Source: Phycisphaerales bacterium
GTDB taxonomy: Bacteria; Planctomycetota; Phycisphaerae; Phycisphaerales; UBA1924
Assembly: GCA_043101835.1 (NCBI GenBank)
Contig: JBICHM010000198.1
Span: 1-34,682 of the forward strand
Length of the DNA: 34,682 bases
Direction: 5' to 3'
Below, in pieces: positions 4,526-34,682 of this stretch. Both the position numbers and the translations under genes were made by a program. How positions within the stretch are numbered: the first letter of the stretch is position 1; the number at the start of each line of letters is the position of its first letter. Under the pieces are notes generated by a model. The model was not told the origin of the DNA. It was given only the letters and a program-made list of their open reading frames with translations, and ran no database searches.

Positions 4526-4528
4526 CGG

Positions 4529-13214: not shown

Positions 13215-13436
13215 ATGCTTGTTGCAACGATCGCGTTGCTCGTACTCGCTGGGTACGTCGCCATCGGCGTCGTCTTCGGTGTGGCCTTTTCTGCTCGGGT
13301 CGTCGATCGGCTCGATTCCGCGGCGGAGGGCGCCGGCCTGGGATTCCACCTGATCATCATCCCCGGCGCCGCCGCGCTCTGGCCGCTTCTGCTCCGACGA
13401 TCACTCGGTGCGCACCGGGCAGGAGACGGCGCGTGA
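13215..13436 (+). CDS. small two-helix membrane protein (73 aa)
   Basis: ATG 13215 preceded by GGGAGGGG (13201-13208). Hydrophobic helices MLVATIALLVLAGYVAIGVVFGVAF and GFHLIIIPGAAALWPLLL. The stop overlaps the next start (GTGA). Confidence 0.55.
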   Translation: MLVATIALLVLAGYVAIGVVFGVAFSARVVDRLDSAAEGAGLGFHLIIIPGAAALWPLLLRRSLGAHRAGDGA

Positions 13437-13573
13437 CCCGCGGCCAGCGACGGGCGCACCTTCGAATCTGGCTCGTCCTCGGGCCGCTCCTCCTCGGTGC
13501 GATAGTCGTGTTGAGCGCGCTCAGGCCGGAGCGACTGGTGTCGGCGGCCCACAGCATCGAGGCTGCGCCGTGA
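13433..13573 (+). CDS. small single-helix membrane protein (46 aa)
   Basis: GTG 13433 overlaps the previous TGA (13434-13436). One helix, LRIWLVLGPLLLGAIVVLSAL. Its TGA (13571-13573) overlaps the next GTG (13570). Supported mainly by the double GTGA coupling. Confidence 0.4.
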   Translation: MTRGQRRAHLRIWLVLGPLLLGAIVVLSALRPERLVSAAHSIEAAP

Positions 13574-14631
13574 CGCACCAATACCGCATGGTGCAATGGA
13601 ATCGGCACAAGCGCATCTACGACGCGCTGGCGCTCGTGTGCATCGTGCTCTTCATCGGGGCGTTCATCATTGGCGGCAAGCTTGCCTACTCCGGCGCCAG
13701 TGCCCTCTCCGATGAGGTGTTGCTGCTCCGCGCTCTTGGCGTATGCGCGTTCCTGATGCTGCACATCGTGCTTTGCATCGGACCGCTTGCGCGGTTCAGT
13801 GACCGATTTGCGCCGCTGTTGTACAACCGCCGACACCTTGGCGTGCTGACGTTCGTCGTCGGTCTGGGACACGCGGCGCTGACCGTGCTCTACTACGGCG
13901 GCTTCGGCGACAAGAACCCCGTCGCGGCGCTGCTTGCCCACGAGGGCGCAACCGCGACAATCTCCGGTTTCCCGTTCGAGTGGCTCGGGTTCGCTGCACT
14001 GCTCATTCTCTTCGTCATGGCGGCGACCAGCCACGACTTCTGGCTGGCGAGCCTGTCGCCGCGCGTGTGGAAGCGCCTGCACATGCTGGTGTACGGCGCA
14101 TACGCGTCTTTGGTGCTGCATGTGCTGCTCGGGGTTCTGCAGAGTGAGCCGAGCCCGGTGTACCCGGCGTTGCTTGCATCCGGGGTCGCGACGGTCGCAG
14201 GGCTGCATATCGCAGCCGGCCTCAAGGAGGCTCGGCGCAATCGCGCCGCGCCGTCCGGCGCGGATGGATGGATCGACGCCGGCCTGGCAGCGGACCTGCC
14301 GGAGAAACGAGGGCGCATCATTTGTCTCTCGGGGGGCGAGCGTGTGGCGCTCTTCAGGCATGACGGCAAGATCTCGGCGACCAGCAACGTGTGCGCGCAC
14401 CAGGGCGGCCCTCTAGGCGAGGGGGAGATCATCGATGGCTGCCTGACCTGCCCGTGGCACGGTTACCAGTACCTGCCGGAGTCTGGAACGAGCCCGCCGC
14501 CGTACTCCGAGAAGATTGCGACCTACGAAGTGCGCATCGAGGGCGGACGCGTGCTGATCAACCCGGCCGCGTGTGCGCCTGGCGCCCCGGTCGAGCCGAC
14601 CCGCTTCGAAGGAGCGCCGACTGATGAGTGA
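13570..14631 (+). CDS. ferric-reductase-like (YedZ/MsrQ-type, di-haem b) transmembrane domain fused to a C-terminal Rieske [2Fe-2S] domain
   Basis: Six helices with conserved His residues (FLMLHIV, VGLGHAAL, AATSHDFW, RLHMLVYG, LVLHVLLG). C-terminal CAH-x16-CPWH at 14392-14460. Start at GTG 13570 (alternative ATG 13588). Confidence 0.85.
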   Translation: MTHQYRMVQWNRHKRIYDALALVCIVLFIGAFIIGGKLAYSGASALSDEVLLLRALGVCAFLMLHIVLCIGPLARFSDRFAPLLYNRRHLGVLTFVVGLGHAALTVLYYGGFGDKNPVAALLAHEGATATISGFPFEWLGFAALLILFVMAATSHDFWLASLSPRVWKRLHMLVYGAYASLVLHVLLGVLQSEPSPVYPALLASGVATVAGLHIAAGLKEARRNRAAPSGADGWIDAGLAADLPEKRGRIICLSGGERVALFRHDGKISATSNVCAHQGGPLGEGEIIDGCLTCPWHGYQYLPESGTSPPPYSEKIATYEVRIEGGRVLINPAACAPGAPVEPTRFEGAPTDE

Positions 14632-18247: not shown

Positions 18248-18622
18248 TCATCGTCGAGTGAGGCGAAGGCGCACCGGCCCGCGGATCGTGCCCGGATCAA
18301 GCACCTCCCCCTTCCGCGTGACCTCGATCCGTCGCGCCCGCGCCAGCCGTCTTGCGGCACTGTGCACCTCGGGCATAAGCGCACGCCACCGGCCGGGATC
18401 CACACGGCGAGCCGCCTCCGACGGACAGATCGAGGCTTCGGGAGCCCGCTCGTTGAGCAGCGCCAAAATGGCGCTTTCGATGCGTCGACCGAACGTGCTG
18501 TTCTTCGTGCGGCGGCACGCATCGGAGCAATAGACGATCTGATTCCAGCAGTTCGCCCATTTGCGTCGCCAGGCAAATGGCCTGCCGCAGACCGGACAGA
18601 TCTTCTCGGCGGCCCCGCTCAT
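18248..18622 (-). CDS. DUF2256 zinc-ribbon-like + DUF3253 fusion protein (124 aa)
   Basis: Start trimmed to ATG 18622, which shares 1 nt with the upstream TGA. CPVCGRPFAWRRKWANCWNQIVYCSDACRR matches my memory of DUF2256. SICPSEAARRV...WRALMPEVHSAARRLARARRIEVTRKGEVLDP...GPVRLR matches DUF3253. Confidence 0.8.
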   Translation of the reverse strand: MSGAAEKICPVCGRPFAWRRKWANCWNQIVYCSDACRRTKNSTFGRRIESAILALLNERAPEASICPSEAARRVDPGRWRALMPEVHSAARRLARARRIEVTRKGEVLDPGTIRGPVRLRLTRR

Positions 18623-21152: not shown

Positions 21153-22103
21153 TCAGAAGCGGGTGGTCGGCTTGCTCGCGGCTCGGGCGCGCCAGCGAGA
21201 CTCGAGACCAGGGTCGAGGTCGTACGGCGTGTCAGAGTCAAGCGGCAGTTCCGCCGGCGTCGCGCGCAGGCAGTAGAACTCGTCGGCGCGCGGCGGCCCG
21301 GCGAGCAGGTCCAGCCACTGCCCCTCGTCCGGTCGCAACGCGATGACCGCGCTTGGCCCGCCAAGCGCCGCGTCGACGAGCAGTGCCCAGTCCACCAGTT
21401 CCTCGCTGTCATCACGGATCGAACGCGGCGCCCGGATCTGGAGCGACGATGCGGGCGCCCCCTTCGACGCGGGCGCCGCCTGCTCGACAACACGCAGGAT
21501 CCGGAGCAACCCGACGGAACTGGGGCCGAAGGCGCCGCTGGTGAAGAATCGATCGAGGATCTGCGGCAGGTCGGGATCGTCCCGATCGGGGACGCCTCCC
21601 GGATCAGTGAACTCCGTGAGTCGTCGGCGCAAGTCCTGCTGCGCCGCCTGGTGTGCGGCCAGCACACCGGCCTCGTTGCGGCTCGCGCGAGCGTGCTCCT
21701 CGAAGGTGCGGACCGCGCCCATCGCCACATCCTGCAGCCAACGGATCGGGACACCCTCGGCCTGCACCAGCGCGACCATCGGGAACTCACCGCGTCCGCG
21801 CGCATCGCTCGACGCCCACATGCGCCCGACAAGCACGGAGCGCTCGCCGAGCGCAACGAACTCATGGCCGAACCGATCGACGAGTTCTCCGTCCGCCTTG
21901 CCGACCCACGCGCCCGTGTCGATGAGCTTCTTGATGCCGCCGTTGTAGAGGCGCTTCTTGAACGCGAGGATCGGGTCGGTCAGTTCGCCGATGCCCGGCT
22001 CGATGTGGTCGCTCCACGCGGGATGCTTGCCGAACGCGAAGAGCGAGAGCGTGGGCGCCTTTCCGCCAAGGATGCGCGACTTGAGGTTACGGATCAGTCC
22101 CAC
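21153..22103 (-). CDS. tagF: TagF-like (DUF2094) T6SS-associated protein with a C-terminal extension
   Basis: FAFGKHPAWSDHI and VGRMWASSDARGRGEFPMVALV resemble the FYGKLPxxGDF and PSxDxVGRxFPL motifs of TagF. Start taken at GTG 22103 (GGAG 7 nt upstream, 20 nt after the upstream stop). The track ORF starts at GTG 22184 and would overlap by 61 nt. Confidence 0.65.
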   Translation of the reverse strand: MGLIRNLKSRILGGKAPTLSLFAFGKHPAWSDHIEPGIGELTDPILAFKKRLYNGGIKKLIDTGAWVGKADGELVDRFGHEFVALGERSVLVGRMWASSDARGRGEFPMVALVQAEGVPIRWLQDVAMGAVRTFEEHARASRNEAGVLAAHQAAQQDLRRRLTEFTDPGGVPDRDDPDLPQILDRFFTSGAFGPSSVGLLRILRVVEQAAPASKGAPASSLQIRAPRSIRDDSEELVDWALLVDAALGGPSAVIALRPDEGQWLDLLAGPPRADEFYCLRATPAELPLDSDTPYDLDPGLESRWRARAASKPTTRF

Positions 22104-22123
22104 GCGGGCGCTCCGGTCGGGTT

Positions 22124-24208
22124 TCAGAATCGGGGCCACTCGTCGAGCGGCGGCAACGGACGATTGAACACAAGCCGGAGCCACACCTCACCGGACGCGA
22201 CCGGGATGCGAACGTCCCACATGTCGGAGGGCGCTCCCGCCGGCGCCTGCGCCGGACGCGCGTCGAAGGCGTAGAGCATCTTCAACGCGGACCACCCGCC
22301 GAGTTCGAACCGGCCGACTGGCGCAGCGTCATTCTCGGTGTTGAGCAGTTCGAGCGTAAGCGAGCGCGACGCGTTGAAGCGGTACGGGGCGTTGATGCGC
22401 ACGTCGGTGTACGAGGCGTCCTCGACGCCCGTGAATGCCTGCGGGCGATTACGCTGCCCGCCCTCGCTCACGCGCAGGTAGTTGACATTCGTCGGCCGGT
22501 CGAGGTTCCGCTCTCCGAGCAGCACCACCGAGCAGGCGAGGTCAACAGCGGCGCCCTGCGGGCCGGTGAGCGCCTGCTTGAGCGCAAAGAGGCGCTCAGC
22601 ACGCTGTCGCTCCTGCGGGCCGAGCAGATCGGCCAGCGACGTTGCTGCGTCGCGGAGCGATGCTGGATACCCGGCGAATGCCTGCGCATCCTCCGCAGGA
22701 TCACCGCCGCCGACCAGCGACTCCACGCCGCCGAAGGCGCCGAGGGCGCCCGGCTCCACCGCCGGCACGCCCGTGTACTGCGCGAGCGGCAGCCCGTTCG
22801 AGGGCGGCGCAAAGGGGAAGCGTCCCTGGTTGTTCTGCACGAACTGGTTGTACTGCCCGACCAGCCCGCCGAACGTGTCGGCGCGGATGGCCTCGATCGC
22901 CGCGACGAGCACCTGGATCGAGTAGCGCGTCTCGAAGATGAACTCGCGTCCGCCGAGGTTCTGGCGCGCCTTCTTCAGGAAGTCGAAGGGCTCGACGACC
23001 CCCGCGCGCATCTCGGCGAGGATCCGGTCACGCGCCGCGTCCGGAGCCGCGGGGAGGCTTCGCAGGTAGTTGGTGACGAGGTTGAGCTGGCTGTCGAGTG
23101 GGTAGACGGCGAGCACGGAGCTCTCGGCCTGGCGCCCGGAGTCGATCCGGGAGAGCAAGCGGGAGACCGCGGCGCCGCGCTCGTTCTCCGGGATGACGCT
23201 CAGCGGCGTCACAGCGGTCTGGATGGCGGCGCGCACCTGCTCGAGTTGCTGCTTGGCGTCGAAGGGACGGATGTCCGGGAGCGCCTGCTCGCGGAACCCG
23301 GCCCAGGTGTCGAAGTCGCGGATGTCCGTCGCATCGGCGAGCACCGTGTCCCAGTACGCGGCGTATTCCCCGAGCCAGCCCTGCATCTGGGGCTTGATCG
23401 CGGCGAGCGCGCGTCGCGCTTCGTCGGGATTCAGCAGCGAGCTTCCCTCGCCCGTCGGCGCCACGCCGGACTGCACCATCGCGTACGCCCCCGCGATCGC
23501 CTGGCCGGCGCCGACCGAGTAGTCGGCCCGGATCAGCTCGCCGTCGGAGCGCGGCTGCAGACGCGAGAGCGTCGGCGTCGGGAACGAGCGGTCGGAGTCG
23601 GCAAAGGACGACGCGATGCCCTCGGGCGACGGCCAGCCCGCATCGAGGGCCTGCACCACGGCCTCCTGGCGCCGGAGCGCCGCGGCGAGGTCGAGCGCGA
23701 ACTGGAGCGACTCCTGCGCCGACGCCGCGCTTGCGCGAAGCTCCGGTCGATCGGACGAAAGGACGGGGTTGAGCGCCTCGTCGGCGCGGCGCAGGCGATC
23801 CTGCGCATCACCGGTGTCGGCGTCCAGTGTCGTCGCAAGGCTGGTCAGATAGATCGGCCCGTCGAGCGATGCGCCCGCGGCGAGTCGGTCCTGCGCGAGG
23901 GCGTACGCATCGAGTCGCCGCCCGATCGCGTACGAGCCGTTCGCGTCGAGGCGCTGCACGTGGGCCGCCCAGTCCTGCGCCCCCGCGGCAAGCACCTGCG
24001 CCCGTGCGTCGAAAGTTTCGTTGAACTCCGCCTGCTGCAGCGCGATTCGCGTCCGGATCGCTTCGAGCCAGCCGGCGTCGGTCTGCGGGTCGGGCGGGGC
24101 GCCCTCCGCGCCGGGCGCCGGCGGGAGCGCGCCGAGCATGCGGTTGAATGCCGCGGCGGCGGTTTCGCGGCGCTGGTTGATGACGCCGCGGACGAATGTC
24201 GGCGTCAC
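22124..24208 (-). CDS. tssM: TssM/IcmF C-terminal (periplasmic) half encoded as a separate ORF
   Basis: GTG 24208 overlaps the TGA (24205-24207) of the N-terminal half. The 117 upstream codons in the track are Arg-rich shadow. YAAYWDTVL and NNQGRFPFAPPS resemble IcmF-related and IcmF_C motifs (GRYPF). No signal peptide or TM helix at its N-terminus. Confidence 0.65.
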   Translation of the reverse strand: MTPTFVRGVINQRRETAAAAFNRMLGALPPAPGAEGAPPDPQTDAGWLEAIRTRIALQQAEFNETFDARAQVLAAGAQDWAAHVQRLDANGSYAIGRRLDAYALAQDRLAAGASLDGPIYLTSLATTLDADTGDAQDRLRRADEALNPVLSSDRPELRASAASAQESLQFALDLAAALRRQEAVVQALDAGWPSPEGIASSFADSDRSFPTPTLSRLQPRSDGELIRADYSVGAGQAIAGAYAMVQSGVAPTGEGSSLLNPDEARRALAAIKPQMQGWLGEYAAYWDTVLADATDIRDFDTWAGFREQALPDIRPFDAKQQLEQVRAAIQTAVTPLSVIPENERGAAVSRLLSRIDSGRQAESSVLAVYPLDSQLNLVTNYLRSLPAAPDAARDRILAEMRAGVVEPFDFLKKARQNLGGREFIFETRYSIQVLVAAIEAIRADTFGGLVGQYNQFVQNNQGRFPFAPPSNGLPLAQYTGVPAVEPGALGAFGGVESLVGGGDPAEDAQAFAGYPASLRDAATSLADLLGPQERQRAERLFALKQALTGPQGAAVDLACSVVLLGERNLDRPTNVNYLRVSEGGQRNRPQAFTGVEDASYTDVRINAPYRFNASRSLTLELLNTENDAAPVGRFELGGWSALKMLYAFDARPAQAPAGAPSDMWDVRIPVASGEVWLRLVFNRPLPPLDEWPRF

Positions 24209-26682
24209 GCCCTGTCCCCCGCTGCGCTGCGCAGTCGGGGCAGCACCTCGTCGATCCTCGCGCGGTGACGCTGGAGGTCGGCGTACCTGCGGAGCCAGTC
24301 GCTCTGGAGGCGCGCCGCCTGCTCCTCGGTCATGGCGCCGCCCTGCTCCGCCGCCATCTGCCAGAGCGCCCGCTCGACATCGAGGAACTGGTTGACCGCA
24401 TCCTCGAGTGTCACGAGCGAGCCGAACGCCGAGGTGTCGTTGTCCGGAGACTGGTAGCGGCCCACGACGCGCTCGACGGATCGCACAAGCCACTCGCGCC
24501 GCTGCGCAGCGCCGGCGCCTTCCGCCTCGCTGCCAAGGCCGATCGCGAACGCAAGCCACTCGCGATACTTCGCTTCATCCTCTGCGCGAAGGCGTGACGC
24601 GGTCTGCTTGAAAACCTCGGCGAACCCTGCGCCGTCCTCACTCCACGAGACGAGGTCCGCCTCGCCGGTCTGGACACGCACCACCTCCGCGACACGACCG
24701 AAGTCGATGAGCGCCGGGTCGGCGCCCAGCGCGGCGACCGCGCCGGTTGCCTCTGCGTCGATCGCGGCCTTGGGGCGCTCGCCCAGCGCGAGCGTCGACC
24801 ACCGGAGCAATTCCGCAAGCGCGCGGGCGTCGGCGTCGAGGTCGGTCGCCTCCTGCGTGGCGAGGGCGCCATCGGTCCCGGGCGCGCCCGAGAGTTGCTG
24901 CAGCGCGAAAGTCGCCGCCGGTCGGGCGGTGACGCGCGCAAGCAGCATCGCCTGCGCCTGACTCGTGTCGGCGCCGAAGGACGACCCGAAGAGGCGGCAC
25001 ATGAACCCGCCCTCGGCCGTCTCGAGGCGCGTCAGGAGGCGACGCTGAATGTCGAGGCTCGTGCCGCCGAACGCGTCGTCCCCGCCCGGCGTCGCGTTGT
25101 ACACCGGCACCGAGTCGCCGATCGGCAGGATGAGCGCCGCCCGTTCGGGGATGAACTGCCCGCCCTGATCCTCGTTGTAGAAATACGCGTCGCGCGCATT
25201 CCGCCACGGGTCGAGGTTCGCCTTCTGCCAGTTCCAGGAGCAGATGACGCCCCAGATCATGGAGGTCAGCAGCAGCGCCGCCGCGGCCCCGCCGGCGACC
25301 CACATGATCATGCGCGCCTTGCGGCGCGTGCCCTCGGCGTCGGCGGCGTCGGTGACGAGCCCCTTCTCCTGGAAGACCTTCTTCTCGATGACGTCCTTGA
25401 GGAAGTAGGCGCGATCGGCGCGGAAGATCCCGCCGCCCGAGACCGCGTCGGCGTCCTCGGCGCCGACCAGATCAGCCAGCGCATTGTCGATCGCTGCGCC
25501 CTTCTGCATCGACGAGGTGAAGAAGACGCCGCGGAAGAACGGCGGCTGATACCACGCCGTCTTCGTGAACAGGCGGTCGAGGTAGGCGCGGAGATTCGGC
25601 GCGAGCGAATCGAACGCTTCGGGGAACGCGTAGAGCTTCTCGACCTGCTCGGCGCGACGCTTGTTGGCGTCCTCGGTGTGCACGGGGTCGCGCAGCAGTT
25701 CGAGGCGGCGCTTGCGGAGTCGATCGCTGATCTCCGAGAGCGCGCCGACGACCATGTCCGGCTTGTACGGCTCATCGAGCGAAGCCGGGTTCGACCAGCC
25801 CAGCATCTGGTGCTGCTGCTCGACATCAGTGAGGTCGTCGAAGAACTCGCGGAAGCCGAGCACGCGGTCACACATGGTGACAACGATGAAGACCGGAAAG
25901 CGCACGCCGAGTCGCTGCTGCAGGCGGCTGAGACGATCGACGAAGCGCGTGGCGCGCTGCTCGATCTGTTCCGTCGTGTCGTCGAGCAGGCCTCCGGTCG
26001 CCGGCTGCTGGCCGGGCTCCACGGGCGGCGCTGCGGCGGGGAGCATGAGCACGACGCCGTTGATCGGGCACTTCTTCCGCTGCCCCTTGAGCATCGTGAG
26101 CAGTTGATCCCACTCGGCGACTTCGCCCGCTGCAACCTCCTCCACGATGATGCGGCCTGCCGTGTCGATGATCACCGCGTCGTTGGTGAACCACCAGTCC
26201 ATGTTCACTGTGCCGCCGGCGCCCTGGAAGCGATCCTGCAGTCCGGGCGGGAAGGCGATATTGCTGCGCCGGATGGCCTCGGTCTTGCCCGACCCTGGCT
26301 CACCGATCAGGATGAACCACGGCACGTCATAGACGGAGCGCCCCGCGGAGCGGAACTTCTCGATGCCTTCCTCGAACTTCTCACGCATATGCTCGAGGCG
26401 ACTGCGCTCCTCGGCGCTGGCGGTGCGCGGTTGGAGCTTGAGCATTGCCTTCAGTGATTCACTGAAGGTCTTGCCCTCCTTCTTGGCCTTGTAGCGTCGG
26501 AAGATCTCGAACGCGATGACGAGCAGCAGCACGACGACAATGCCGCCGATGAGCCAGCCCGCGGCCGCGCGCAGGAAGTAGATCGCGCCAACGCCGATAG
26601 CGCCGACGCCGACGAACGCCCCGATGCGCGCGGGCTTCGGGAGTCTGTTGAACCCGACGAGGTCGAGAACATCGCTCAGCAT
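24205..26682 (-). CDS. tssM: TssM/IcmF N-terminal half: 2 TM, P-loop NTPase, third TM, start of periplasmic domain
   Basis: TM1/TM2 (IGAFVGVGAIGVGAIYFL, WLIGGIVVVLLLVIAF). YDVPWFILIGEPGSGKTEA (Walker A at 26281-26301). NMDWWFTNDAVIIDTAGR. FPVFIVVTMCDRVLGFREFFDDL (ImcF-related domain). Third TM MIMWVAGGAAAALLLTSMIWGVI. Confidence 0.85.
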   Translation of the reverse strand: MLSDVLDLVGFNRLPKPARIGAFVGVGAIGVGAIYFLRAAAGWLIGGIVVVLLLVIAFEIFRRYKAKKEGKTFSESLKAMLKLQPRTASAEERSRLEHMREKFEEGIEKFRSAGRSVYDVPWFILIGEPGSGKTEAIRRSNIAFPPGLQDRFQGAGGTVNMDWWFTNDAVIIDTAGRIIVEEVAAGEVAEWDQLLTMLKGQRKKCPINGVVLMLPAAAPPVEPGQQPATGGLLDDTTEQIEQRATRFVDRLSRLQQRLGVRFPVFIVVTMCDRVLGFREFFDDLTDVEQQHQMLGWSNPASLDEPYKPDMVVGALSEISDRLRKRRLELLRDPVHTEDANKRRAEQVEKLYAFPEAFDSLAPNLRAYLDRLFTKTAWYQPPFFRGVFFTSSMQKGAAIDNALADLVGAEDADAVSGGGIFRADRAYFLKDVIEKKVFQEKGLVTDAADAEGTRRKARMIMWVAGGAAAALLLTSMIWGVICSWNWQKANLDPWRNARDAYFYNEDQGGQFIPERAALILPIGDSVPVYNATPGGDDAFGGTSLDIQRRLLTRLETAEGGFMCRLFGSSFGADTSQAQAMLLARVTARPAATFALQQLSGAPGTDGALATQEATDLDADARALAELLRWSTLALGERPKAAIDAEATGAVAALGADPALIDFGRVAEVVRVQTGEADLVSWSEDGAGFAEVFKQTASRLRAEDEAKYREWLAFAIGLGSEAEGAGAAQRREWLVRSVERVVGRYQSPDNDTSAFGSLVTLEDAVNQFLDVERALWQMAAEQGGAMTEEQAARLQSDWLRRYADLQRHRARIDEVLPRLRSAAGDRA

Positions 26683-27419
26683 CAGCGGGCCTCCCCTTCC
26701 GGAGCGGGCGTCTCGCTCATGGTCTCGGTGATAGTGCGCACCTCGGCGCGGGAGCCGTTCACGACCGCTCGGGTCGCCCCGAGCAGCGTCACGATGCCGA
26801 CGAGCACGATGATGGCCGTCTTCAGGAGCGAGCCGGCCGGGTTCAGGCTGAGCGTCTCGGTGCGGACATGCCGGTAGGCGTCGGGACAGAGCTTCCGCTC
26901 ACCGCCGACCCCGCGCGTCTTCTGCACGCGCATCCACGCCTGGTTCATCTTCTGGCGGAGCATGTCGTGCATGCCCTCGTAGGAACCGGTGAAGCCGAGG
27001 CCGACCATGATGTAGTACGCCTCGACGCACTGGTCGGCGGCTTCATCGCTCCGGGCCATCGCGTCGTCGAAGAGCTCCCAGAACTTGTCGTCGCCGCCGT
27101 GCTCATTGTGGTCGTACTGAATCGGCTTCCACTGCGGCACGCCGGCCCACTCGCTCGTCAGCAGCATGCTGTCGGCGAAGAAGACAAGCGACAGGAACGC
27201 CTGCTCGTAGGCGCGCCCCGCGACAGGGTCGCCCGAGCAGCACCGCTGCACGCGGTCGAGGATCGCCACGACCTCGGCGCGGACCTGGTCCGCGGCGGGC
27301 TGCGCCTCTGCCTCGAGCTTCGCCGAGCGGTTGACGCGCATGACGTACTGGAACAACTCGTCCGCGCAGCGGGCGAGCGTCGGACGCGCGGTGTCGGTCT
27401 GTTCAGGGGACTGTTGCAT
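26682..27419 (-). CDS. tssL: TssL / DotU family protein (no peptidoglycan-binding extension)
   Basis: AFLSLVFFADSMLLTSEW...W...GGDDKFWELFDDAMA...VEAYYIMVGLGFTGSYEG matches the DotU core. Single C-terminal TM LLKTAIIVLVGIVTLLGA. The ATG at 27419 lies 17 nt inside tssK, and the stop shares 1 nt with the tssM ATG. Confidence 0.85.
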   Translation of the reverse strand: MQQSPEQTDTARPTLARCADELFQYVMRVNRSAKLEAEAQPAADQVRAEVVAILDRVQRCCSGDPVAGRAYEQAFLSLVFFADSMLLTSEWAGVPQWKPIQYDHNEHGGDDKFWELFDDAMARSDEAADQCVEAYYIMVGLGFTGSYEGMHDMLRQKMNQAWMRVQKTRGVGGERKLCPDAYRHVRTETLSLNPAGSLLKTAIIVLVGIVTLLGATRAVVNGSRAEVRTITETMSETPAPEGEAR

Positions 27420-28767
27420 AGATCGCTAGCCGCCAGTCGGAGTCACCGGCCTCGGCGAAGTTCGCAACCGCCGCCGAGGCGCTCTTGATCGCTTCCCATT
27501 TCCGATCGGTCACATCAAGCTTGTAGAAATGCAGGCCGGCGCGCCCGGGAAGATGGGGCGAACCGACGCGGTCGTACTCGAGCGGAACGCCCCAGATGAG
27601 GCGACGCGCGAGCGACGGGGGAAGGAGCCGGAAGTTGTCCTTATTCTCGACGACCTCATTGACCTCGCGCGCATCCTGGTTGGTCTGCACACCGAGGTAC
27701 CAGACGACGCCGCGCGCGAACGCTTCCGCCGGCAGATCGACCTGGTACTGGTCCTGTTCCTTCTTGAAGTCGTACTTGATGAAGCGCTCCGCCACCTGCC
27801 CGGGGAGCAGGCCGCGGATGCGCTGGTCGAGGTCGAGGAAGAGCGCGCCGAGATTGTCGTGCTTGTACTCCGGCGGCGCCGCCTCGTCGCGTCCGGGCGA
27901 CAACGCGCGCAGCTCCGCCAGGCACTCGATCATCTCGCTGTACGCCTCGAAGGGCGCGGCGGCTCTGGCGTATTGCGCCAGCGCGCTCAGCCGGACCGCG
28001 AATCGCGAAAGCGTGCGCAGCCGGAAGAACTGCTCGATCTGCCGGCCCTGGAGGTTGTCGATCTCCATGCCCGCCGCGGCCATCTGGGCGGCGAGATCGG
28101 CGCGGCTCGCCTCGATCTGCTGCGCAAGGTCGCGCACAAGGCGGGTCAGACGACCGGCGCCCGCGAGCACGAGGCTGGGCGGGATGAACCGTGGGTCCTG
28201 CTTCGGAAGCCCGCCGCCCTCGCCCACGCCAAGCACAAGGCGCGCCAGCGGGATCGTCTCCATGTCCTCGGTCGGTTCGCCCTCAATGACGAGGCGGGCG
28301 TTGACCCGACGGACGACTTCCTTGCTGGCGCCCTCGCCAGTGTTCTCATCGACCAGGTCGCGCAGCGCGACGCGGTGGCGGCGCATGTGCCGGTGCGGCG
28401 CCGTCTCGTTCAGATCATCGACGACGTTGGCGCCGTGCGGACGTGACACGGGCACGCCGAGGCGGATCTCCAGCTTGCCGCCCGACTCCTCGAACGCCTT
28501 CTTGAAGTCGAGCACCGGGATCTCGGCGTCGTCAGGATGGCGAACGACGAGCCCGCTGGGCATCACGGCGACGAGTTTGTCGACCCGCACCTGAAAGTTG
28601 TCGAGCGCATCGTCGCTGATGACCGTCTCGACCACGCCGTACGGATGCGCGAAGCGCATCGCACGCTCGCCATCGAGGCGCGCGAGGAGTCCGCGCTGCA
28701 GGTGCTGGAGGTGATGGGGCTTGAGGAACAGCCCCTCGTGCCAGTGGACCAGAGTGATGTCATCCAC
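27403..28767 (-). CDS. tssK: TssK (VasE) baseplate-to-membrane-complex adaptor
   Basis: GTG start at 28767. N-terminus VDDITLVHWHEGLFLKPHHLQHLQR matches the canonical TssK opening (V.W.EG..L.PQHFQQ). Length of 454 aa and overall pattern are consistent. Confidence 0.9.
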   Translation of the reverse strand: MDDITLVHWHEGLFLKPHHLQHLQRGLLARLDGERAMRFAHPYGVVETVISDDALDNFQVRVDKLVAVMPSGLVVRHPDDAEIPVLDFKKAFEESGGKLEIRLGVPVSRPHGANVVDDLNETAPHRHMRRHRVALRDLVDENTGEGASKEVVRRVNARLVIEGEPTEDMETIPLARLVLGVGEGGGLPKQDPRFIPPSLVLAGAGRLTRLVRDLAQQIEASRADLAAQMAAAGMEIDNLQGRQIEQFFRLRTLSRFAVRLSALAQYARAAAPFEAYSEMIECLAELRALSPGRDEAAPPEYKHDNLGALFLDLDQRIRGLLPGQVAERFIKYDFKKEQDQYQVDLPAEAFARGVVWYLGVQTNQDAREVNEVVENKDNFRLLPPSLARRLIWGVPLEYDRVGSPHLPGRAGLHFYKLDVTDRKWEAIKSASAAVANFAEAGDSDWRLAIYATVP

Positions 28768-29575
28768 GCGCCGTGCTCCCTGCAGACGCGTTGAGCGTCT
28801 CGATCACGTACTCGGCGAGGCGACGCTGGATCTCGCCAAAGACCGCCTGCACATCGGCGGCGTGGTGCGATTCGACCAGCGTCTCGTACTGATTCCAATA
28901 GGCCGCTTCTCGCGTCGCGTTGCGCTTCCCCGGCAGGCTCGACCGGATCGCGTCCGGCGAGAAGATGCGGACGTGCCCCTGGGCGTGCTGCTTCGCGGCG
29001 TCGGCCAGGCCCATCAGCATGCCGGAGATGAGCCGGCGCAGCAGATCGAGCTGGCGACGCACCTCATCGGGCCCCGTATCGCCCTGCCCGGAGAGAAACG
29101 CCGCCGACACCGTCCGGATGGCCACCGGCGCCGGCGCCTTCGCTCCGTCATGGCTCTGCGCGTGCTTGGCCAGCTCGCGCCAGATCGTGCGCACCGCGGC
29201 GTCGACCGCGAGGGTGAACTGCATCCACGTCGCGGCGAGTTGGATCAGCCGGTGCTCGTCGATGGCCTCGACCGGTACGCCGAGCGCATCGGTGAACTCC
29301 TTGAGGTCCACCCCGCTCGGTGCGCGTGGGGCCGGCGCCGCCGGGCGCGGCGCACCCCCGGCTGGGCCGAGCTCGCCCTCGTCGATGTACTCGCGGATGG
29401 GGAAGCGCTCGGCGAGGTCGCGGTAGAACGCGCGCGGGTCGGCGGCGGCGTCGATCACGCACGCAGCGAGCTCGCGCACGCCCGCGGCGCGCTCCTGCTC
29501 CGAAGCGCTGCCGAGATCCGCCTCGAGCAGCCGCAGCGCTCTGGCCAGGCCGTCAACCGACACACGAGCCGTCAT
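28760..29575 (-). CDS. hypothetical protein in the TagH/Fha position; possible TagH C-terminal-domain homologue without an FHA domain
   Basis: ATG 29575 with a purine-rich GGGGGGAAGGG upstream. 8-nt overlap with the tssK start. Good coding composition. The C-terminal part (LISGMLMGLADAAKQHAQGHVRIFSPDAI...AAYWNQYETLVE...FGEIQRRLAEYV) loosely resembles the non-FHA C-terminal region of T6SS Fha/TagH proteins as I remember them. CDS call is confident, function call is not. Confidence 0.5.
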   Translation of the reverse strand: MTARVSVDGLARALRLLEADLGSASEQERAAGVRELAACVIDAAADPRAFYRDLAERFPIREYIDEGELGPAGGAPRPAAPAPRAPSGVDLKEFTDALGVPVEAIDEHRLIQLAATWMQFTLAVDAAVRTIWRELAKHAQSHDGAKAPAPVAIRTVSAAFLSGQGDTGPDEVRRQLDLLRRLISGMLMGLADAAKQHAQGHVRIFSPDAIRSSLPGKRNATREAAYWNQYETLVESHHAADVQAVFGEIQRRLAEYVIETLNASAGSTARG

Positions 29576-29926
29576 ACGGCGCCCTTCCCCCCGACGCTTC
29601 GACCAGAGGAACGGGGAAAGTCGGCAGGCTCCTGCCCCCTCGGAGCGCCTCCTCCCCCACCGCGCTGCGCGGCGTCAGCTCGCGCACGGGAACGAATGCC
29701 AAACCTACCTGCCCCCCCCATTGGTGTCCACCCTTGAGCGCCCGAGAGCCGGACGCCGCCGACGCCCCTCCCGAACGACCGAGAACCATGCACAGGCGCG
29801 CCGGTCGCGGCGGAACGCGCGGCTGGGGGGATCGGGCAACCCCGCAACCGCGCCCCCCGACATCCGGCGGTCAAGCGCTCCGGCGCCGGGGCCGATCCAA
29901 CTCCGAACGAACCGGAGGAGCCAGAC
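29576..29926. promoter_or_regulatory. divergent intergenic region (T6SS-like operon versus lipoprotein gene)
   Basis: 351 nt with no credible ORF, lying between divergent starts 29575 (-) and 29927 (+). Contains polypyrimidine/G tracts and a small GGCAGG/CCTGCC palindrome (about 29622-29635). No promoter could be assigned confidently. Confidence 0.3.
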
Positions 29927-30244
29927 ATGCGCCACGCGCGAATCCTGAAGTCGCTGACCTGTCTCACGATCTGCGCCGGCGCCATCGGCTGCAGTTCCAC
30001 CCCGGCCGCCCCGGCCCGCGCCCATGCCGAGTTGACGCGCGAAGCGCAGCTCATGCAGGACGAGGCCATCTTCGCTGTCGGCGACTCGCTCGGCGCCCGC
30101 CTCGTGCGGAGTCCCCAGCACGAGACGCTCGACTCTCCCGTCTTCGCAAGGCGCACGCCGATGGGCTTCCAGGCCGCCGATGCGCTGGGCGCCACCGCGC
30201 TCTCCAGCCGCCCGGCGCTCGCGGGCGTCGTCGACGACGAATAA
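29927..30244 (+). CDS. small lipoprotein (105 aa)
   Basis: GGAGGAG 6-7 nt upstream of ATG 29927. Signal and lipobox MRHARILKSLTCLTICAGAIGC|SS. Codon position 3 is almost exclusively G/C. TAA stop at 30242-30244. Confidence 0.75.
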   Translation: MRHARILKSLTCLTICAGAIGCSSTPAAPARAHAELTREAQLMQDEAIFAVGDSLGARLVRSPQHETLDSPVFARRTPMGFQAADALGATALSSRPALAGVVDDE

Positions 30245-30257
30245 GCGGAAGCGTTCG

Positions 30258-33200
30258 TCACGGCGTCGCCTCCCCGGCGCTGATGACGGCCGCGAGATCT
30301 TCCATTGTCTGCGCGTATCGCCCGGCGAGCGATCGCGGCGCTGCGTCACCGACGCCAAAGGCAAGGCGCACGCCGACATCGGGGAATCCGCTCCCTCCAC
30401 CGCGCACCACATCAGCAAGCAGATTCGCGCGTCGATCACGCCGCGACCGGCTCAGCGTGACCACCTGGTCCGGCTCGCCCGCGCCGCTGAGCGCGGAGAT
30501 GCCGACGATCCGTGCCGACGCCTCCAGATCCTCATCGGCGAGCGACGGCGCAGCGAACTCCGGCGGCCGCTCGTTGGCCAGCGCATCCGCCCACTCGGCG
30601 ACGTTGCCCACCATGTCGCGCAGCGCTGGCGTGCCCGGCGCAAGGTCGATCGGGCGGAGCCACAGCCAGCCGTCATCTTCAGCGTCGTACGACGACGGCG
30701 TCTCGCGCGTGCCGTATCCAAAGAACGATCGGGCCTGCGGCGACGGGATGCCTCGCTGCTCGCGCTGCACCTGGCGGAGCCAGGCAGCGTCGCTGACGTT
30801 CGGCGCCGCGCCTTGGCGGAGGTCCTCTCTCCCATACGCCGCGAGCCATTCCTCGGGGCTCGGCAGGCGGCATCCGGCAGCGCTGGCCGTCGCCCATGCG
30901 CCCTGGAATCCAATCAGATGCAGCGGCGTTCGCTCGGTCGGTGACCATGCCTGCGAACGAGCCGCGTCCTGTTCACCGTAGATCAGTCGCCGGTGCGCCG
31001 GCCAATCCACGCCGCCCTCGCGCACCTGCGCGGGTGGGCTGATCCAGTCAACCTGCAACTCGACCTGCCGCTGGGCTGTGACCCAGTATCCACGGATTTC
31101 GTTGGGGATCGCGTCGTCATCCGGGGCGTTGCCCCAATCCTTGAGCAGCGCGTGCTGCGCGATCATGTCCCAGGACGGGCCGTCGGCGTCGCGGGCAATC
31201 TGCTGGAACGCCTCGAGCGACAGCTCATCCGACGCCATGTAGAAGGGCGGATCGAACTCCTCGATCAACGCGAATCCCATCGTGACGCCGTTGCGCTCGT
31301 AGACCGGCCGCTCGATCGTGGACTCGGGCCGCAGCGTCCACGCGGCGCCACCCGGCCCAATCGTTGCGAGCAGATCAAGATCGAGCCGCGGCCCGCCGCG
31401 CCCCGCTTCGAGATCGGCGAGACGCTGATCCGCGACGCCGAGCAGCGTGTACCAGTCGCCATCGCCCGGCACACCGGGGCGGATGTCCGCGATGCGCGCA
31501 CGGAACGCGCCGAGCCGGGGGCGCACCTCTTCATCGGGCGCATCCTCGGCGGGCGCGTAGCCGACCACCTCGGCGAGGAGGCGCGCCGCTTCGATGTGCG
31601 GCTGCACGCCGCCGCCACCAACCTCCGGGAGAATCTGTTCGACGCCGGCCAGATCGGCGAGCGCATCGGCGTTGGTCGCCCAGGTCGCCGGGCGGCCCGC
31701 CAACCACGAATCGAGTCGCTGCGGCACGGTGGGAGCGCCAAGACGATCGGGGAGCACCTCGTAGGCCGCGACGAGACGATCGCGGATCACGCGCTCGAGT
31801 TCGATGTCGTCAATCGCCAGCGACGGGTCGACCTGGGCCTCCGCCTCGCGCAGGAACTCGTATGCGTTCCAGAGCACCTCGGTGCGGATGACGCCGGATC
31901 GCAGGTCGATCGCAAGACGATCACGCAGGAACTCCCACTGACCGCGCGTGTCGATGTACGCCTGCAACTGCACCAGCGCCTGGAAGAGACGCCCGTCGCC
32001 GGGGTGCGCAGCGGGATCGACGCCGACGCTGCGGAGCGACTCGGCGAGCGCGGTCACCGCGCCGGCGGCGTCCGGCGTCAGCGGCCCCTGCCGAGCATCG
32101 ATGCTCGCAAGCACCGCTGCAGCGCCGTCGCGCAGTTCAACGATGCGCTCAATGGTCGCCCGGATCGGCGCCGCGTCATCCGGCGAGGCCACCGCTGTTG
32201 TCCGCCACTCCTCGAGCAGTGTCGCGGCCCGGCTGCGGAGCACATCGCCGAAGGTGCTGTTGTCGCCGCGGACCGACTCGACACTCGCGAGCAGAACGAG
32301 CGCATCCCGCGACACAGCGCGCAGGCGCTGCGTTTCGTTGGCCAGTTCGTCGAGAATCGGCTCGAGAACGTCGTCCTCCGCGCCGCGCGCCTGATCGACG
32401 ATCGGCGTCAGATGCGCATCGAACCAGCCGGGGAACTCCTCGATGAGCGACTCAGCGCGCGAGATGGCGCCGCGCCGCCGAAGCTCGATGTTCGCCCGCT
32501 CCTCGAGGTACGACTCGGCGCCGGCCAGCCGGTCGAACGACTCGGCGAGGCGCGATCCGGCGACCGCGACGGCGTCGAGCACTGTCTGCTCGTTCTCGAG
32601 GCTCCACTCGCCGACACCGTCCAGCGGCTCCTCAACGGTCGCCAACTGTGCTTCGAGCGCATCGATCCGGTCCTGAATGATCGCCATCTCCTCGCCGGTG
32701 AGCCCGGTGACAAGATCTGTGATCTGCTGGCGAAGCTCGTCGCGCTTCGCAAAGAGCTGCAGCCTCGGATCGGTCCCGATGTTGACGAACTGCGAGTCGC
32801 GAACGGTCCGCTGCCACCGATCGAATGCGTCGCGCCCCGTCGCCGCGTCCGCGAAGGCCTGCCCGCCGACGCCCGCGCCCTCAGCAAGGAACCGCTCGCG
32901 GTCGAACCGGGCGTTGCCCGACCAGTACTCTGCGGTGTCGGCGACCTGTTCGAGCACGACCGCGCTCTGGCTCGAAAACCGCGCGATCGTCGCCTCCGGC
33001 GCCTCGCCGGGCTGCGCCTGCGCGAGCGAGTCGAGCCACTGCCGAGCAGCTTCGCCCGCCGGCCGGGGCTCGCCGGCGCCGTCGACCACGATCATCGCGC
33101 CGCTCGCGTCGATATCGATCAACGTGTTCTCGGTGCGGTCACGCGCATCCGCCAGCCGTGCGAACCATCCGCTGAGCTGCGTGTGCAGTCGCGCGGCGTC

Positions 33201-34523
33201 GTCGACGGTCTCGGCAAGCGCCCGCAGCTCCGCCCGCTCGATGAGACCAGCGCAGCGATCCGCCATCTGCTGCGCTTCGCGCGCGGGGCCCGACCACCCC
33301 TGCGCAGCCGCCTTCGCCGACGCCTCCCGCAGCGGCTCGATGAGCCTGGCGCCGACCTCCTCCATCGCCGCGTCGTACGCCGCCTCCCACGCCGCGACAT
33401 TGGAGATCGTCCAGCGGATCATTCCGTGGTGATCGGCGCCGACGTTTTCGACGCGTCTGCGACCGCGCGTGAACCACTTGTTGAAATCGTCGGATCGCTT
33501 CAACGCCTCCACGCTCAGCAGACCGACGGCGTCCTGGAACTCCGGCGTCGCCAGACGTTCGCTGAGCGCCGGGTCGTCGGCACGACGCAGCGCGTTCTCC
33601 AGAAGCAGCGCGAAGGTCTTTGCCTCGTCGAACTGCCGCTTCGGCGGCGCGTCCCCAAGCGGCTCGCCTTCGGGTCGCGTCGCGACCCACGCCGCCGCGG
33701 CCCCGCCGACGATCACGAGCGCCAGCGCTGCGCCGCCGCCGATCCGAACCGCCTTGCGTGTGCCCGGGCTGGCCGGGCGGATGGATCGCAGCGCATCACG
33801 CGCCTCGATGACGCCGAAGTCGCTGCGCGATGGCGAGGCGGTGAGCAGGTCGGCGCACAGGCGGCGGTGCCGCACCCCGCCGCGACCGAAGCAGCGGAAC
33901 GCGGACGCGTCGCCATCGTCGCTGAAGATCGTCGGATCCGGCTCGCGATGCGTCGCGATCAGGTGCATCAGGCGCCCGATCGCACGGAGATCGGCGGCAG
34001 GCCCGTCCGGCGGCGCCGCCGCGGCAGGCGCATCGCCGATGCGCACCGCCGTCGTCCATTCCACCACCGGCCCACTGAGGTAGATGCCCGCCGGCGTCAG
34101 CGCGCCATGACCGCGCCCGGTGCGCTCGTGCAGCACCGCGCAGGCGTCGAGCACCCGTTCGATGAGCCGATGCAGCGCCGACTGGTCCGGGCGCAGCCGG
34201 CGGTTGACCAGATCGTCCGCCGTCGCCGGCGGAAGGTCGACGACATCGAAGACGCCGCCGGAGCACCGACCGCTCTCGTGCACGGTCGCGAAGAGATCCG
34301 GCTCGGCGAGCGCGGCGTCTCGGAGCGCCGCCACGCTCGTGAGCCGGCCCTTGCAGAACCGATCGTACTCCTCGTCCGTCAGGACCCCGAGCGGGTTGCG
34401 CGTGGAGCGGAGCAGGAAGGACCCGGGGCCGCCCTCGCCGGCGCGCGATGCGCGCCACGCCACAACGAGCGCGCGCGTACGCCACTCCTCCTGCGGCTGG
34501 AACCCGCCGATGGCGTCGTGCAT
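30258..34523 (-). CDS. 1421-aa membrane protein: N-terminal degenerate protein-kinase-like domain, one TM, about 790-aa helical region, C-terminal FGE-sulfatase (SUMF1-like) domain
   Basis: Kinase-like layout with degenerate catalytic motifs: LVVAWRAS in place of VAIK, GHGALTPAGIYL in place of HRDLKPxNILL, IGDAPA in place of DFG. TM AVRIGGGAALALVIVGGAAAAWVA (about 33678-33749). C-terminal about 340 aa (about 30261-31290) carries HLIGFQGAWATASAAGCRLPSPEEWLAAYG, LRDMVGNVAEWADA and FPDVGVRLAF, typical of FGE-sulfatase domains. Confidence 0.85.
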   Translation of the reverse strand: MHDAIGGFQPQEEWRTRALVVAWRASRAGEGGPGSFLLRSTRNPLGVLTDEEYDRFCKGRLTSVAALRDAALAEPDLFATVHESGRCSGGVFDVVDLPPATADDLVNRRLRPDQSALHRLIERVLDACAVLHERTGRGHGALTPAGIYLSGPVVEWTTAVRIGDAPAAAAPPDGPAADLRAIGRLMHLIATHREPDPTIFSDDGDASAFRCFGRGGVRHRRLCADLLTASPSRSDFGVIEARDALRSIRPASPGTRKAVRIGGGAALALVIVGGAAAAWVATRPEGEPLGDAPPKRQFDEAKTFALLLENALRRADDPALSERLATPEFQDAVGLLSVEALKRSDDFNKWFTRGRRRVENVGADHHGMIRWTISNVAAWEAAYDAAMEEVGARLIEPLREASAKAAAQGWSGPAREAQQMADRCAGLIERAELRALAETVDDAARLHTQLSGWFARLADARDRTENTLIDIDASGAMIVVDGAGEPRPAGEAARQWLDSLAQAQPGEAPEATIARFSSQSAVVLEQVADTAEYWSGNARFDRERFLAEGAGVGGQAFADAATGRDAFDRWQRTVRDSQFVNIGTDPRLQLFAKRDELRQQITDLVTGLTGEEMAIIQDRIDALEAQLATVEEPLDGVGEWSLENEQTVLDAVAVAGSRLAESFDRLAGAESYLEERANIELRRRGAISRAESLIEEFPGWFDAHLTPIVDQARGAEDDVLEPILDELANETQRLRAVSRDALVLLASVESVRGDNSTFGDVLRSRAATLLEEWRTTAVASPDDAAPIRATIERIVELRDGAAAVLASIDARQGPLTPDAAGAVTALAESLRSVGVDPAAHPGDGRLFQALVQLQAYIDTRGQWEFLRDRLAIDLRSGVIRTEVLWNAYEFLREAEAQVDPSLAIDDIELERVIRDRLVAAYEVLPDRLGAPTVPQRLDSWLAGRPATWATNADALADLAGVEQILPEVGGGGVQPHIEAARLLAEVVGYAPAEDAPDEEVRPRLGAFRARIADIRPGVPGDGDWYTLLGVADQRLADLEAGRGGPRLDLDLLATIGPGGAAWTLRPESTIERPVYERNGVTMGFALIEEFDPPFYMASDELSLEAFQQIARDADGPSWDMIAQHALLKDWGNAPDDDAIPNEIRGYWVTAQRQVELQVDWISPPAQVREGGVDWPAHRRLIYGEQDAARSQAWSPTERTPLHLIGFQGAWATASAAGCRLPSPEEWLAAYGREDLRQGAAPNVSDAAWLRQVQREQRGIPSPQARSFFGYGTRETPSSYDAEDDGWLWLRPIDLAPGTPALRDMVGNVAEWADALANERPPEFAAPSLADEDLEASARIVGISALSGAGEPDQVVTLSRSRRDRRANLLADVVRGGGSGFPDVGVRLAFGVGDAAPRSLAGRYAQTMEDLAAVISAGEATP

Positions 34524-34533: not shown

Positions 34534-34682
34534 TCACTGCCCCGAGGGAACGCTCGGTGTCACGAGCACGCTCCCCCGCCTGATGGTCACCCGGATGTCC
34601 TGGTGCTCGACACCGGCCTCGTCCCACGCGCAGCCGCGGAGCGCCACGCTCTGTCGGCGCGGGTCGGCGGGGCCGCTGCGCC
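34534..34682 (-). CDS. 3' end of an upstream minus-strand gene (partial, runs off the window)
   Basis: My own translation of the reverse strand gives an open frame: ...RSGPADPRRQSVALRGCAWDEAGVEHQDIRVTIRRGSVLVTPSVPSGQ*. Third-position G/C is high and the TGA lies at 34534-34536, 10 nt before the ATG at 34523. Not in the supplied track because it has no start in the window. Confidence 0.4.
   Translation of the reverse strand, partial: RSGPADPRRQSVALRGCAWDEAGVEHQDIRVTIRRGSVLVTPSVPSGQ

Follow-up and report, generated by a model that had tools for sequence, protein, structure and literature searches.

At one end of a 34,682-nucleotide contig of a Phycisphaerales bacterium (NCBI GenBank assembly GCA_043101835.1, contig JBICHM010000198.1; the whole stretch is referred to here as the window) lies a gene for a giant membrane protein, beside genes of a type VI secretion system (T6SS). 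The protein is composed of a cytoplasmic kinase-like domain, one transmembrane (TM) helix, a helical periplasmic region of about 780 residues and a distal domain with the fold of the formylglycine-generating enzyme (FGE). It belongs to an undescribed and unannotated family associated with T6SS in bacteria of the Planctomycetes-Verrucomicrobia-Chlamydiae (PVC) superphylum, whose members adjoin T6SS genes in Planctomycetota and Verrucomicrobiota. As judged by profile comparisons, its N-terminal domain is a true but degenerate homologue of Hanks-type kinases. We infer, at a probability of roughly one half, that the protein serves the T6SS of PVC bacteria as a transmembrane regulator or scaffold which resembles PpkA and TagR combined and which operates independently of phosphorylation.

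The gene is an open reading frame (ORF) of the minus strand (30258-34523) encoding 1421 amino acids (aa). Its codon-position GC contents of 0.76, 0.52 and 0.84, in a window of 70% GC, are of the coding type, and the value at the third position (GC3) bears out an initial annotation, made from the sequence alone, in treating it as a real gene. The product has a single hydrophobic peak, at residues ~261-283 (33675-33743, minus strand; Kyte-Doolittle 1.9), which is the TM helix expected behind the kinase-like domain. The segment is flanked by basic residues (RKAVR) on its N-terminal side and by acidic residues on its C-terminal side; the N-terminus is therefore predicted to be cytoplasmic and about 1140 residues to be periplasmic. 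This periplasmic part carries a net charge of about -75 and only two Cys. FGE-sulfatase was the sole family reported for the protein in a Pfam search, and a search of NCBIfam gave no match.

The degenerate Hanks-type kinase-like (pseudokinase) domain occupies residues 1-260 (33744-34523, minus strand). Used alone, the window sequence of this domain finds GCN2 at E~0.7. A profile of five close homologues (A2) finds the same protein at E=0.002, over alphaD, alphaE and the catalytic loop, with HGALTPAG placed opposite HRNLKPVN. A family profile of 25 N-domain sequences, the window protein included (A6), gave 111 PDB matches at E<=0.01, all of them protein kinases, and the alignment spans beta1 to beta8; the best match was StkP (1e-8), followed by phosphorylase kinase gamma, RNase L, PknA and PknI. 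An AlphaFold2 (AF2) model of the domain was of low confidence (predicted local distance difference test, pLDDT, 53); its top 50 Foldseek matches were all kinases, none individually significant. Since the subfamily profile, the family profile and Foldseek all return kinases, we regard homology to Hanks kinases as established. The Hanks layout initially read into the first ~230 residues therefore stands, with no non-kinase fold among the PDB matches of A6. Scoring by hidden Markov models gave a divided outcome: the family profile finds only kinases, while the Pfam Pkinase model itself remains sub-threshold. The latter did not match the window protein at E<=1, reached E<=0.01 for 5 of the 25 family members and left all tested members below its gathering score.

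The catalytic positions are largely replaced. At the place of the Gly-rich loop the window protein reads EEWRTRALVVAW and the family consensus is ELxRSGLAxV, not GxGxxG, confirming that this loop is absent. The initial annotation had taken VAWR for the VAIK motif with Lys changed to Arg. The alignment places VAWRA (residues 21-25) in beta2, where the family has VYxA, and the equivalent of VAIK in beta3 is FLLR (residues 36-39; family FVVK). Since the true position of the VAIK Lys is R39, the Lys-to-Arg conclusion survives at another residue. R39 is invariant among 5 close homologues; across the family the position holds K in 92 members and R in 9. The alphaC Glu corresponds to T62 (in RLTSV) in the window protein, and to FL[DE]SA, with D or E in 67 members, in the family.

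The catalytic loop of the window protein is RGHGALTPAG (H139-G-A141-L-T143-P-A-G146) and that of the family R[PA]HGNLKP[ST]N; alignments with both the subfamily and the family profile agree with the initial placement of HGALTPAG at HRDLKPxN. Among 153 family members, position 141 of the catalytic Asp is N in 107, A in 18 and D in 8, whereas the catalytic-loop Lys is kept in 111 and the catalytic-loop Asn in 138. One of the four close homologues of the window protein has HGDLDP. The family consensus is HGN and not HRD. At the DFG region the window protein has IGDAP, including D164, opposite L[TS]DP in the family (D in 117 of 153; extended motif [KR][VI]xL[TAC]DP). The initial reading of GDA as the DFG replacement is plausible from this family motif, and the beta8 pattern fits, but HMMER did not align D164 to DFG and the model has low confidence there. 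We attribute the missed alignment to a beta7-beta8 turn that is five residues longer in the family. D164 is separated by only 14 residues from the invariant alphaF Asp (D178), compared with about 36 in StkP, and hence the activation loop, P+1 loop and APE motif are absent. Profile homology and residue loss together support the pseudokinase call. On these alignments the change of Asp to Asn at the catalytic position is family-wide and the predicted pseudokinase status covers the whole family, of which the window subfamily appears as the most degraded.

An AF2 model of residues 284-1421, built on a 42-sequence alignment (mean pLDDT 82.6, predicted template-modelling score 0.48), is helical to about residue 1060 and alpha/beta thereafter. 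The first part is a very acidic, all-helical periplasmic region, forming a stalk or bundles (residues ~284-1060; 31344-33674, minus strand), with helices of up to 52 residues and about 780 helical residues in all. It gave no significant structural match in a Foldseek search of the PDB, which agrees with its first description as some 790 aa of helical sequence lacking a recognised motif. The region is common to the family by hhalign only (probability 99.7, E=2.8e-26, 724 aligned columns, collinear); HMMER iteration could not link the helical region of the window subfamily to the rest of the family.

The remainder is the periplasmic, non-catalytic FGE-sulfatase-fold domain (residues ~1061-1421; 30261-31343, minus strand). 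Pfam PF03781 (FGE-sulfatase) matches residues 1194-1316 with 25.2 bits against a cut-off of 23.3, and the top 31 Foldseek matches of the AF2 model in the PDB are FGE or EgtB (best E=6.6e-4, probability 1.00), with a target-normalised template-modelling score of ~0.4. Both results uphold the proposed C-terminal domain of FGE-sulfatase type. A sequence-profile search of the PDB with the domain returned nothing, so that there the FGE fold is seen only via the AF2 model. The protein has the FGE-type motifs GCRLPSPEEW, GNVAEW and GFPDVGVRLAF. Inspection for active-site Cys residues showed only one Cys in the C-terminal 380 residues, C1218 in GCRLP, away from the catalytic motif, and the segment RGGGSGFPDVGVRLA contains neither catalytic Cys of FGE. 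With no Cys pair, and with the stretch expected to carry it missing, the domain is predicted to be non-catalytic.

An exhaustive HMMER search of 1.84 billion representatives with residues 1-1080 as query retrieved 352 proteins at E<=1e-3 and 114 at E<=1e-10, most of them 1300-1460 aa long. Among the matches listed, the best match lies within residues ~5-470, and nearly always within the first ~300; the exceptions are P0003, the representative of the window's own subfamily, matched over 1-1080, and P0007, a C-terminal fragment. Named members come from Phycisphaerales, Sedimentisphaerales and Planctomycetota, and the family includes Phycisphaerae, Chthoniobacterales and Sumerlaeota. They are named 'SUMF1/EgtB/PvdO family nonheme iron enzyme' or hypothetical, which poses an annotation problem, as at least 352 cluster representatives, mostly of ~1400 aa, are known only under such names. 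The version in Chthoniobacterales is shorter (~700-760 aa, one of 758 aa); its kinase-like domain and TM helix lead through a Pro-rich linker to an FGE-like domain, with no helical region. We therefore consider pseudokinase, TM helix and FGE domain to be the family core and the stalk to be a lineage-specific insert. A profile search of genome contigs with the full-length alignment of close homologues found no relative. Among the titles and abstracts listed in literature searches, none described a T6SS pseudokinase or accessory T6SS genes peculiar to Planctomycetota.

Upstream of the giant gene the window continues for only 160 bp. Three of its four close homologues, of 84, 81 and 59% identity, were looked up. 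In the relatives of 84% and 81% identity (loci L001 and L002) the order is complete: tssE, tssF, tssG, clpV, a 169-aa ORF, vgrG, a DUF6931 gene, a PAAR gene, a gene for a 186-aa lipoprotein and, after 10 bp, the giant gene, which is followed by a 105-aa lipoprotein gene on the opposite strand, a gene for a 270-aa protein, tssK, tssL, tssM (1519 aa) and a gene for a 316-aa protein. The homologue of 59% identity is on an 8.2-kb contig that spans only the 186-aa lipoprotein gene to tssL. The 'T6SS-like operon' of the initial annotation is correct in that T6SS genes adjoin the giant gene; what the window really holds is half of a complete T6SS cluster, the other half of which lies beyond its edge. 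The order lipoprotein, giant protein, (small lipoprotein), Fha-C-like protein, TssK, TssL, TssM and TagF-like protein is conserved at 81-84% and at 59% identity, and also more distantly.

The T6SS genes of the window are all on the minus strand. The first, always located just upstream of tssK, encodes a 271-aa protein (28760-29575) resembling the C-terminal part of Fha/TagH but with no FHA domain: Pfam T6SS_FHA_C matches 5 of 11 orthologues at E<=1 (best 0.0085) and FHA matches none. These weak but repeated matches favour the earlier reading of this neighbour as an FHA-less TagH-like protein. Then come tssK (27403-28767; Pfam T6SS_VasE, E=9e-58), tssL (26682-27419; Pfam DotU, E=1.9e-21), tssM (22124-26682; Pfam IcmF-related_N, E=7.7e-55), which is split into two ORFs, and a gene for a TagF-like protein (21153-22184; Pfam TagF_N). 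TagF_N matches 5 of 7 orthologues of this last protein at E<=1 (best 0.0065). Its motif FGKHPGWxDH resembles the N-terminal motif of TagF, and its gene has the position, after tssM, that tagF has in the H1 cluster of Pseudomonas aeruginosa. Profile searches of the PDB with the TagF-like and Fha-like families gave no meaningful match.

To examine linkage more widely, the L001 proteins were used to search gene tables of more distant members together with 28 loci taken from GTDB species representatives. This yielded 33 loci (the window included) in which the giant ORF is complete and is followed by at least 1.2 kb of sequence. The scan used an 8-sequence subset of N-domains seeded with [GHS]R[PA]HGNLKP, and loci L009-L036 are accordingly biased to HGN-type members. 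In 17 of the 33 loci, from Phycisphaerae and Chthoniobacterales, an Fha-like gene and/or tssK, tssL or tssM is found directly downstream of the giant gene; the co-occurrence with tssKLM is thus positive and extends across two phyla. Thirteen of these have tssK and tssL, the contig ends after tssK in two and after the Fha-like gene in one, and L006 has tssL and tssM with no tssK. Seven further loci have genes of the upstream module only (the ~165-aa lipoprotein, a ~660-aa protein, or VgrG/PAAR), with no downstream tss gene in the examined sequence. None of the loci encodes a canonical HRDLKPxN kinase within +-10 kb.

Two loci show the periplasmic module attached to another cytoplasmic domain. 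In L005 a gene divergent from the giant gene (1628-4567, minus strand) encodes a 979-aa protein with a TagF-like N-terminal domain, a TM helix and a C-terminal part homologous to the last ~580 residues of the giant protein, including the FGE domain (phmmer E=3e-39). In L035, from Sumerlaeota, a 1439-aa protein (~6950-11270, minus strand) has a TagF-like N-terminal domain, a TM helix, a long region with motifs of the family type and, at its C-terminus, the FGE-type motifs GNVAEW and SDVGLRLAF. On account of these fusions, one periplasmic module can be regarded as joined to either a PpkA-like or a TagF-like domain. We know of no earlier description of TagF fused to a periplasmic sensor. PpkA and TagF are presented, in PMC13584744 and PMC5995506, as the two known arms of post-translational T6SS control. 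By the homologies detected here, a single periplasmic module is wired to putative counterparts of both of these regulators.

The genes on either side of the giant gene encode lipoproteins. Ten bp upstream, and cut by the window end, are the last 48 codons and stop of a lipoprotein gene (34534-34682, minus strand; ~186 aa, full length at L001 9430-9990). In 22 loci from three phyla, the gene directly preceding the giant gene encodes a lipobox-bearing member of the corresponding family (~135-165 aa). In spite of the absence of a Pfam T6SS-SciN match or a TssJ match in the PDB with an 18-sequence profile, this family is a candidate TssJ by its lipoprotein nature, size and position. On the other side a 105-aa lipoprotein gene (29927-30244, plus strand; GC3 0.887, lipobox AIGC) is convergent with the giant gene. 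This small protein has a GDx[LI]G motif; of 32 related loci, 8 encode such a lipoprotein at the equivalent position and in the same direction, and one of the 8 is a distant locus not associated with T6SS. A minus-strand ORF at 29572-30261, which would couple the giant gene to tssK, was rejected as non-coding by its codon-position GC. Since the lipoprotein gene is real and the overlapping ORF non-coding, the giant gene is the last of the upstream operon (tssE-F-G-clpV-vgrG-PAAR), separate from the tssK operon, as the initial annotation had argued from the opposite-strand gene between them. Scans of 29400-30500 for sigma-70 promoters and intrinsic terminators found nothing and are uninformative for the host phylum.

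Some further features of these loci may be recorded. The tssM gene of the window consists of two overlapping ORFs (825 and 811 aa) which, relative to the 1519-aa orthologue of L001, result from a 1-nt deletion near 24214, beside a run of five G. A tblastn search with the L001 TssM places the frame change at 24211-24223, and a DNA alignment was also made. The break may be either an assembly error or the mark of a pseudogene; if real, the T6SS of the window would be non-functional. In most family loci a protein of ~640-670 aa with no Pfam match is encoded upstream of the lipoprotein-giant pair (L004 7371-9392, L007 7517-9445, L008 7223-9205 and about 20 others). Its gene is on the opposite strand in Chthoniobacterales, and DUF6931 and PAAR genes take its place in the lineage of the window. 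In the position between clpV and vgrG that one might have expected an Hcp gene to occupy, L001 has a 169-aa ORF (6058-6567) that has no Pfam match and is conserved only in the closest relatives. A second large gene (~1390 aa, no Pfam match), convergent with the giant gene, is present in L007 (14242-18423, minus strand), L010 and L014; it occupies the position of the Fha-like/tssK block in loci of the Sedimentisphaerales type.

Elsewhere in the window, an 828-aa ORF (18622-21108, minus strand) combines an N-terminal DNA photolyase/FAD_binding_7 part with a C-terminal NAD(P)-binding Rossmann part of amine-oxidase type, an unusual fusion. Three adjacent genes at 9409-14631 each carry a Rieske [2Fe-2S] domain fused to another domain: a TPP enzyme (9409-11409, minus strand), a glutamate-synthase-type FMN domain (11406-13094, minus strand) and a ferric-reductase membrane domain (13408-14631, plus strand).

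How such a protein might act can be considered in the light of the PpkA pathway. The FGE/SUMF1 group of proteins is presumably that designated COG1262. In the known pathway, TagR activates the dimerisation and autophosphorylation of PpkA (TagE), and TagH (Fha) is then phosphorylated (PMC13584744). TagR is listed as COG1262, and its working partner TagQ is a lipoprotein of the outer membrane (PMC13584744). By virtue of this assignment of TagR, the giant protein looks like PpkA-like and TagR-like modules fused. A pathway that operates free of phosphorylation would be consistent with the same assignment, with an Fha-like partner that has no phosphothreonine-binding FHA domain, and with the lack of an HRDLKPxN kinase nearby. 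In the mechanism we propose, the FGE head would bind an envelope ligand or an outer-membrane lipoprotein partner, and a resulting conformational or oligomeric change would be relayed across the membrane by the TM helix. The dead kinase domain would offer a docking surface for TssL, TssM, TssK and the FHA-less Fha-like and TagF-like proteins, and T6SS assembly could thereby be licensed or positioned with no phosphorylation step. Stated in its most specific form, which we advance tentatively and with clearly less confidence, this would be a phosphorylation-free T6SS checkpoint of PVC bacteria, in which a helical stalk and a TagR-like FGE head are hard-wired to a dead PpkA-like or a TagF-like domain, and in which envelope cues switch assembly by protein contacts with the FHA-less Fha, TssK, TssL and TssM.

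The earlier suggestion of a PpkA analogue that has lost phosphotransfer is therefore sustained in part. The loss of catalytic residues, the T6SS linkage, the FHA-less Fha-like protein and the TagF-like neighbours speak for it, and the connection with TagR and the TagF-like fusions strengthen it, whereas its regulatory role is one that we infer, and several observations weigh on the other side. In 9 of the 33 loci, mostly Tepidisphaerales, no T6SS-module gene lies within the examined flanks; the family is hence not strictly T6SS-bound, or the T6SS of those genomes is located elsewhere. In most members the beta3 Lys, the Asn of the catalytic loop and a DFG-like Asp are retained; these proteins might for this reason bind nucleotides or have an atypical activity. 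The TagF and Fha-C assignments are sub-threshold in Pfam, the PDB profile search gave no TagF match, and the model of the N-domain is of low confidence (pLDDT 53). Finally, a purely structural role would fit the data equally well.

In such a role, a possible though somewhat doubtful one in our estimation, the protein would be a subunit of the membrane complex, its stalk and FGE head tethering or spacing TssJ-like, TssL and TssM proteins across the wide planctomycetal periplasm or anchoring them to the wall, and its kinase domain acting as a fixed plug as in YukC/EssB. The gene is fixed between the lipoprotein gene at the TssJ position and the Fha-like and tssK genes, TssM is unusually long at 1519 aa, and the presence of a helical region in Planctomycetota and a Pro-rich linker in Chthoniobacterales suits a spacer. 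A precedent for a membrane pseudokinase in a secretion core is provided by YukC/EssB (bioRxiv 10.1101/2020.05.09.085852). This role is harder to reconcile with orphan copies that have no T6SS genes nearby, or with the fusion of the periplasmic module to a TagF-like domain, a homologue of a regulator; moreover, among T6SS proteins the FGE fold is known from a regulator, TagR, and not from structural components.

It is less probable, and on balance unlikely, that the protein senses the envelope of PVC bacteria in a general way, with an output not confined to T6SS and with tssKLM adjacency as one of several wirings. This would account for the nine loci with no T6SS-module gene in the examined flanks and for L016, which lies in a complete Tepidisphaera genome and has no tss genes in 6.3 kb downstream, and FGE-sulfatase domains do recur as sensor modules in unrelated systems; the term reportedly occurs in papers on bacterial pattern-recognition receptors and orthocaspases (PMC13581612 and PMC7475262). 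The synteny with tssK, tssL and tssM across two phyla argues otherwise, as does the fact that loci with no tssKLM often keep the lipoprotein and 660-aa genes or a TagF-like fusion (L005, L016, L035).

We regard it as highly improbable that the protein is still an enzyme, whether as an atypical kinase or a nucleotide-dependent switch in the cytoplasm, or as an oxidase of FGE/EgtB type in the periplasm. The wider family does keep the beta3 Lys (K in 92), the loop Lys (111/153), the loop Asn (138/153) and a DFG-like Asp (117/153); HGD, which resembles active non-RD kinases, occurs in 8 of 153 members, and some members bear the NCBI name 'SUMF1/EgtB/PvdO family nonheme iron enzyme'. The window protein, by contrast, has R39, T62, A141, T143 and G146, with neither Gly-rich loop nor activation segment, and the only Cys of its FGE domain lies outside the catalytic motif. 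Pfam detects no other catalytic domain in it, nor a DinB-type domain, the domain that binds iron in EgtB. A T6SS cargo effector, suggested by the order vgrG-DUF6931-PAAR-lipoprotein-giant in L001 and L002, was rejected as scarcely credible because the protein has a bitopic inner-membrane topology and no toxin, PAAR, MIX or Rhs module (Pfam, NCBIfam), its synteny is conserved across phyla, unlike that of variable effector cassettes, VgrG and PAAR are elsewhere absent or separated from it by the 660-aa and lipoprotein genes, and the small adjacent lipoprotein, on the opposite strand, is present in only 8 of 32 related loci.

To our knowledge, almost all that is understood of how T6SS firing is controlled after translation comes from the PpkA-PppA-Fha, TagQRST and TagF systems of Proteobacteria. 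In the loci described here, homologues of those parts appear rearranged in another superphylum, with kinase-like and TagR-like parts joined in one chain, a dead kinase, an Fha-like protein with no phosphothreonine reader and a TagF-like domain able to replace the kinase. If the regulatory proposal is true, the signalling logic of the pathway would be independent of phosphorylation, and a defined periplasmic domain would be available for asking what T6SS sensors detect.

For comparison with known systems, PpkA and TagR were set beside the giant protein by their descriptions. PpkA, whose threonine-phosphorylation pathway is known from P. aeruginosa H1, Agrobacterium and Serratia, is a bitopic membrane protein with a periplasmic vWA domain. 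The giant protein is like it in having an N-terminal Hanks fold, one TM helix and a periplasmic domain, and in being encoded beside tssK, tssL and tssM and genes of Fha and TagF type. It differs in lacking the catalytic residues and the activation segment and in its periplasmic part, which is helical with an added FGE domain; the pathway would differ as well, since the Fha-like partner has no FHA domain and the examined flanks contain no canonical kinase. With TagR it shares a domain of FGE/SUMF1 type in the periplasm of a T6SS-bearing cell, and an adjacent lipoprotein gene recalls the relation of TagQ to TagR. Here, in contrast, the FGE domain forms the C-terminal end of a bitopic membrane protein of 1421 aa and not a free periplasmic protein, and, unlike TagQRST, the gene tables of L001-L008 hold no TagS or TagT genes of ATP-binding cassette type.

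Ser/Thr kinases that combine Pkinase and FGE-sulfatase domains are a common bacterial architecture. They have the same order of kinase-like domain, TM helix and FGE-sulfatase domain; the giant family differs in its sub-threshold Pkinase similarity, in HGN instead of HRD, in the helical insert of ~780 residues and in its linkage to T6SS genes. FGE (SUMF1) and EgtB share the fold of the C-terminal domain, but the giant protein has no Cys pair for Cu(I) binding or catalysis. [quoted passage not shown] The likeness is one of analogy only, both being bitopic proteins of a secretion apparatus with a cytoplasmic pseudokinase and an extracytoplasmic domain. YukC/EssB belongs to another secretion system and phylum, has no FGE domain and is absent from the best 60 of the 111 PDB matches of the A6 profile. 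Set against these systems, the giant protein matches neither an active kinase nor PpkA proper, and neither a free TagR nor a catalytic FGE.

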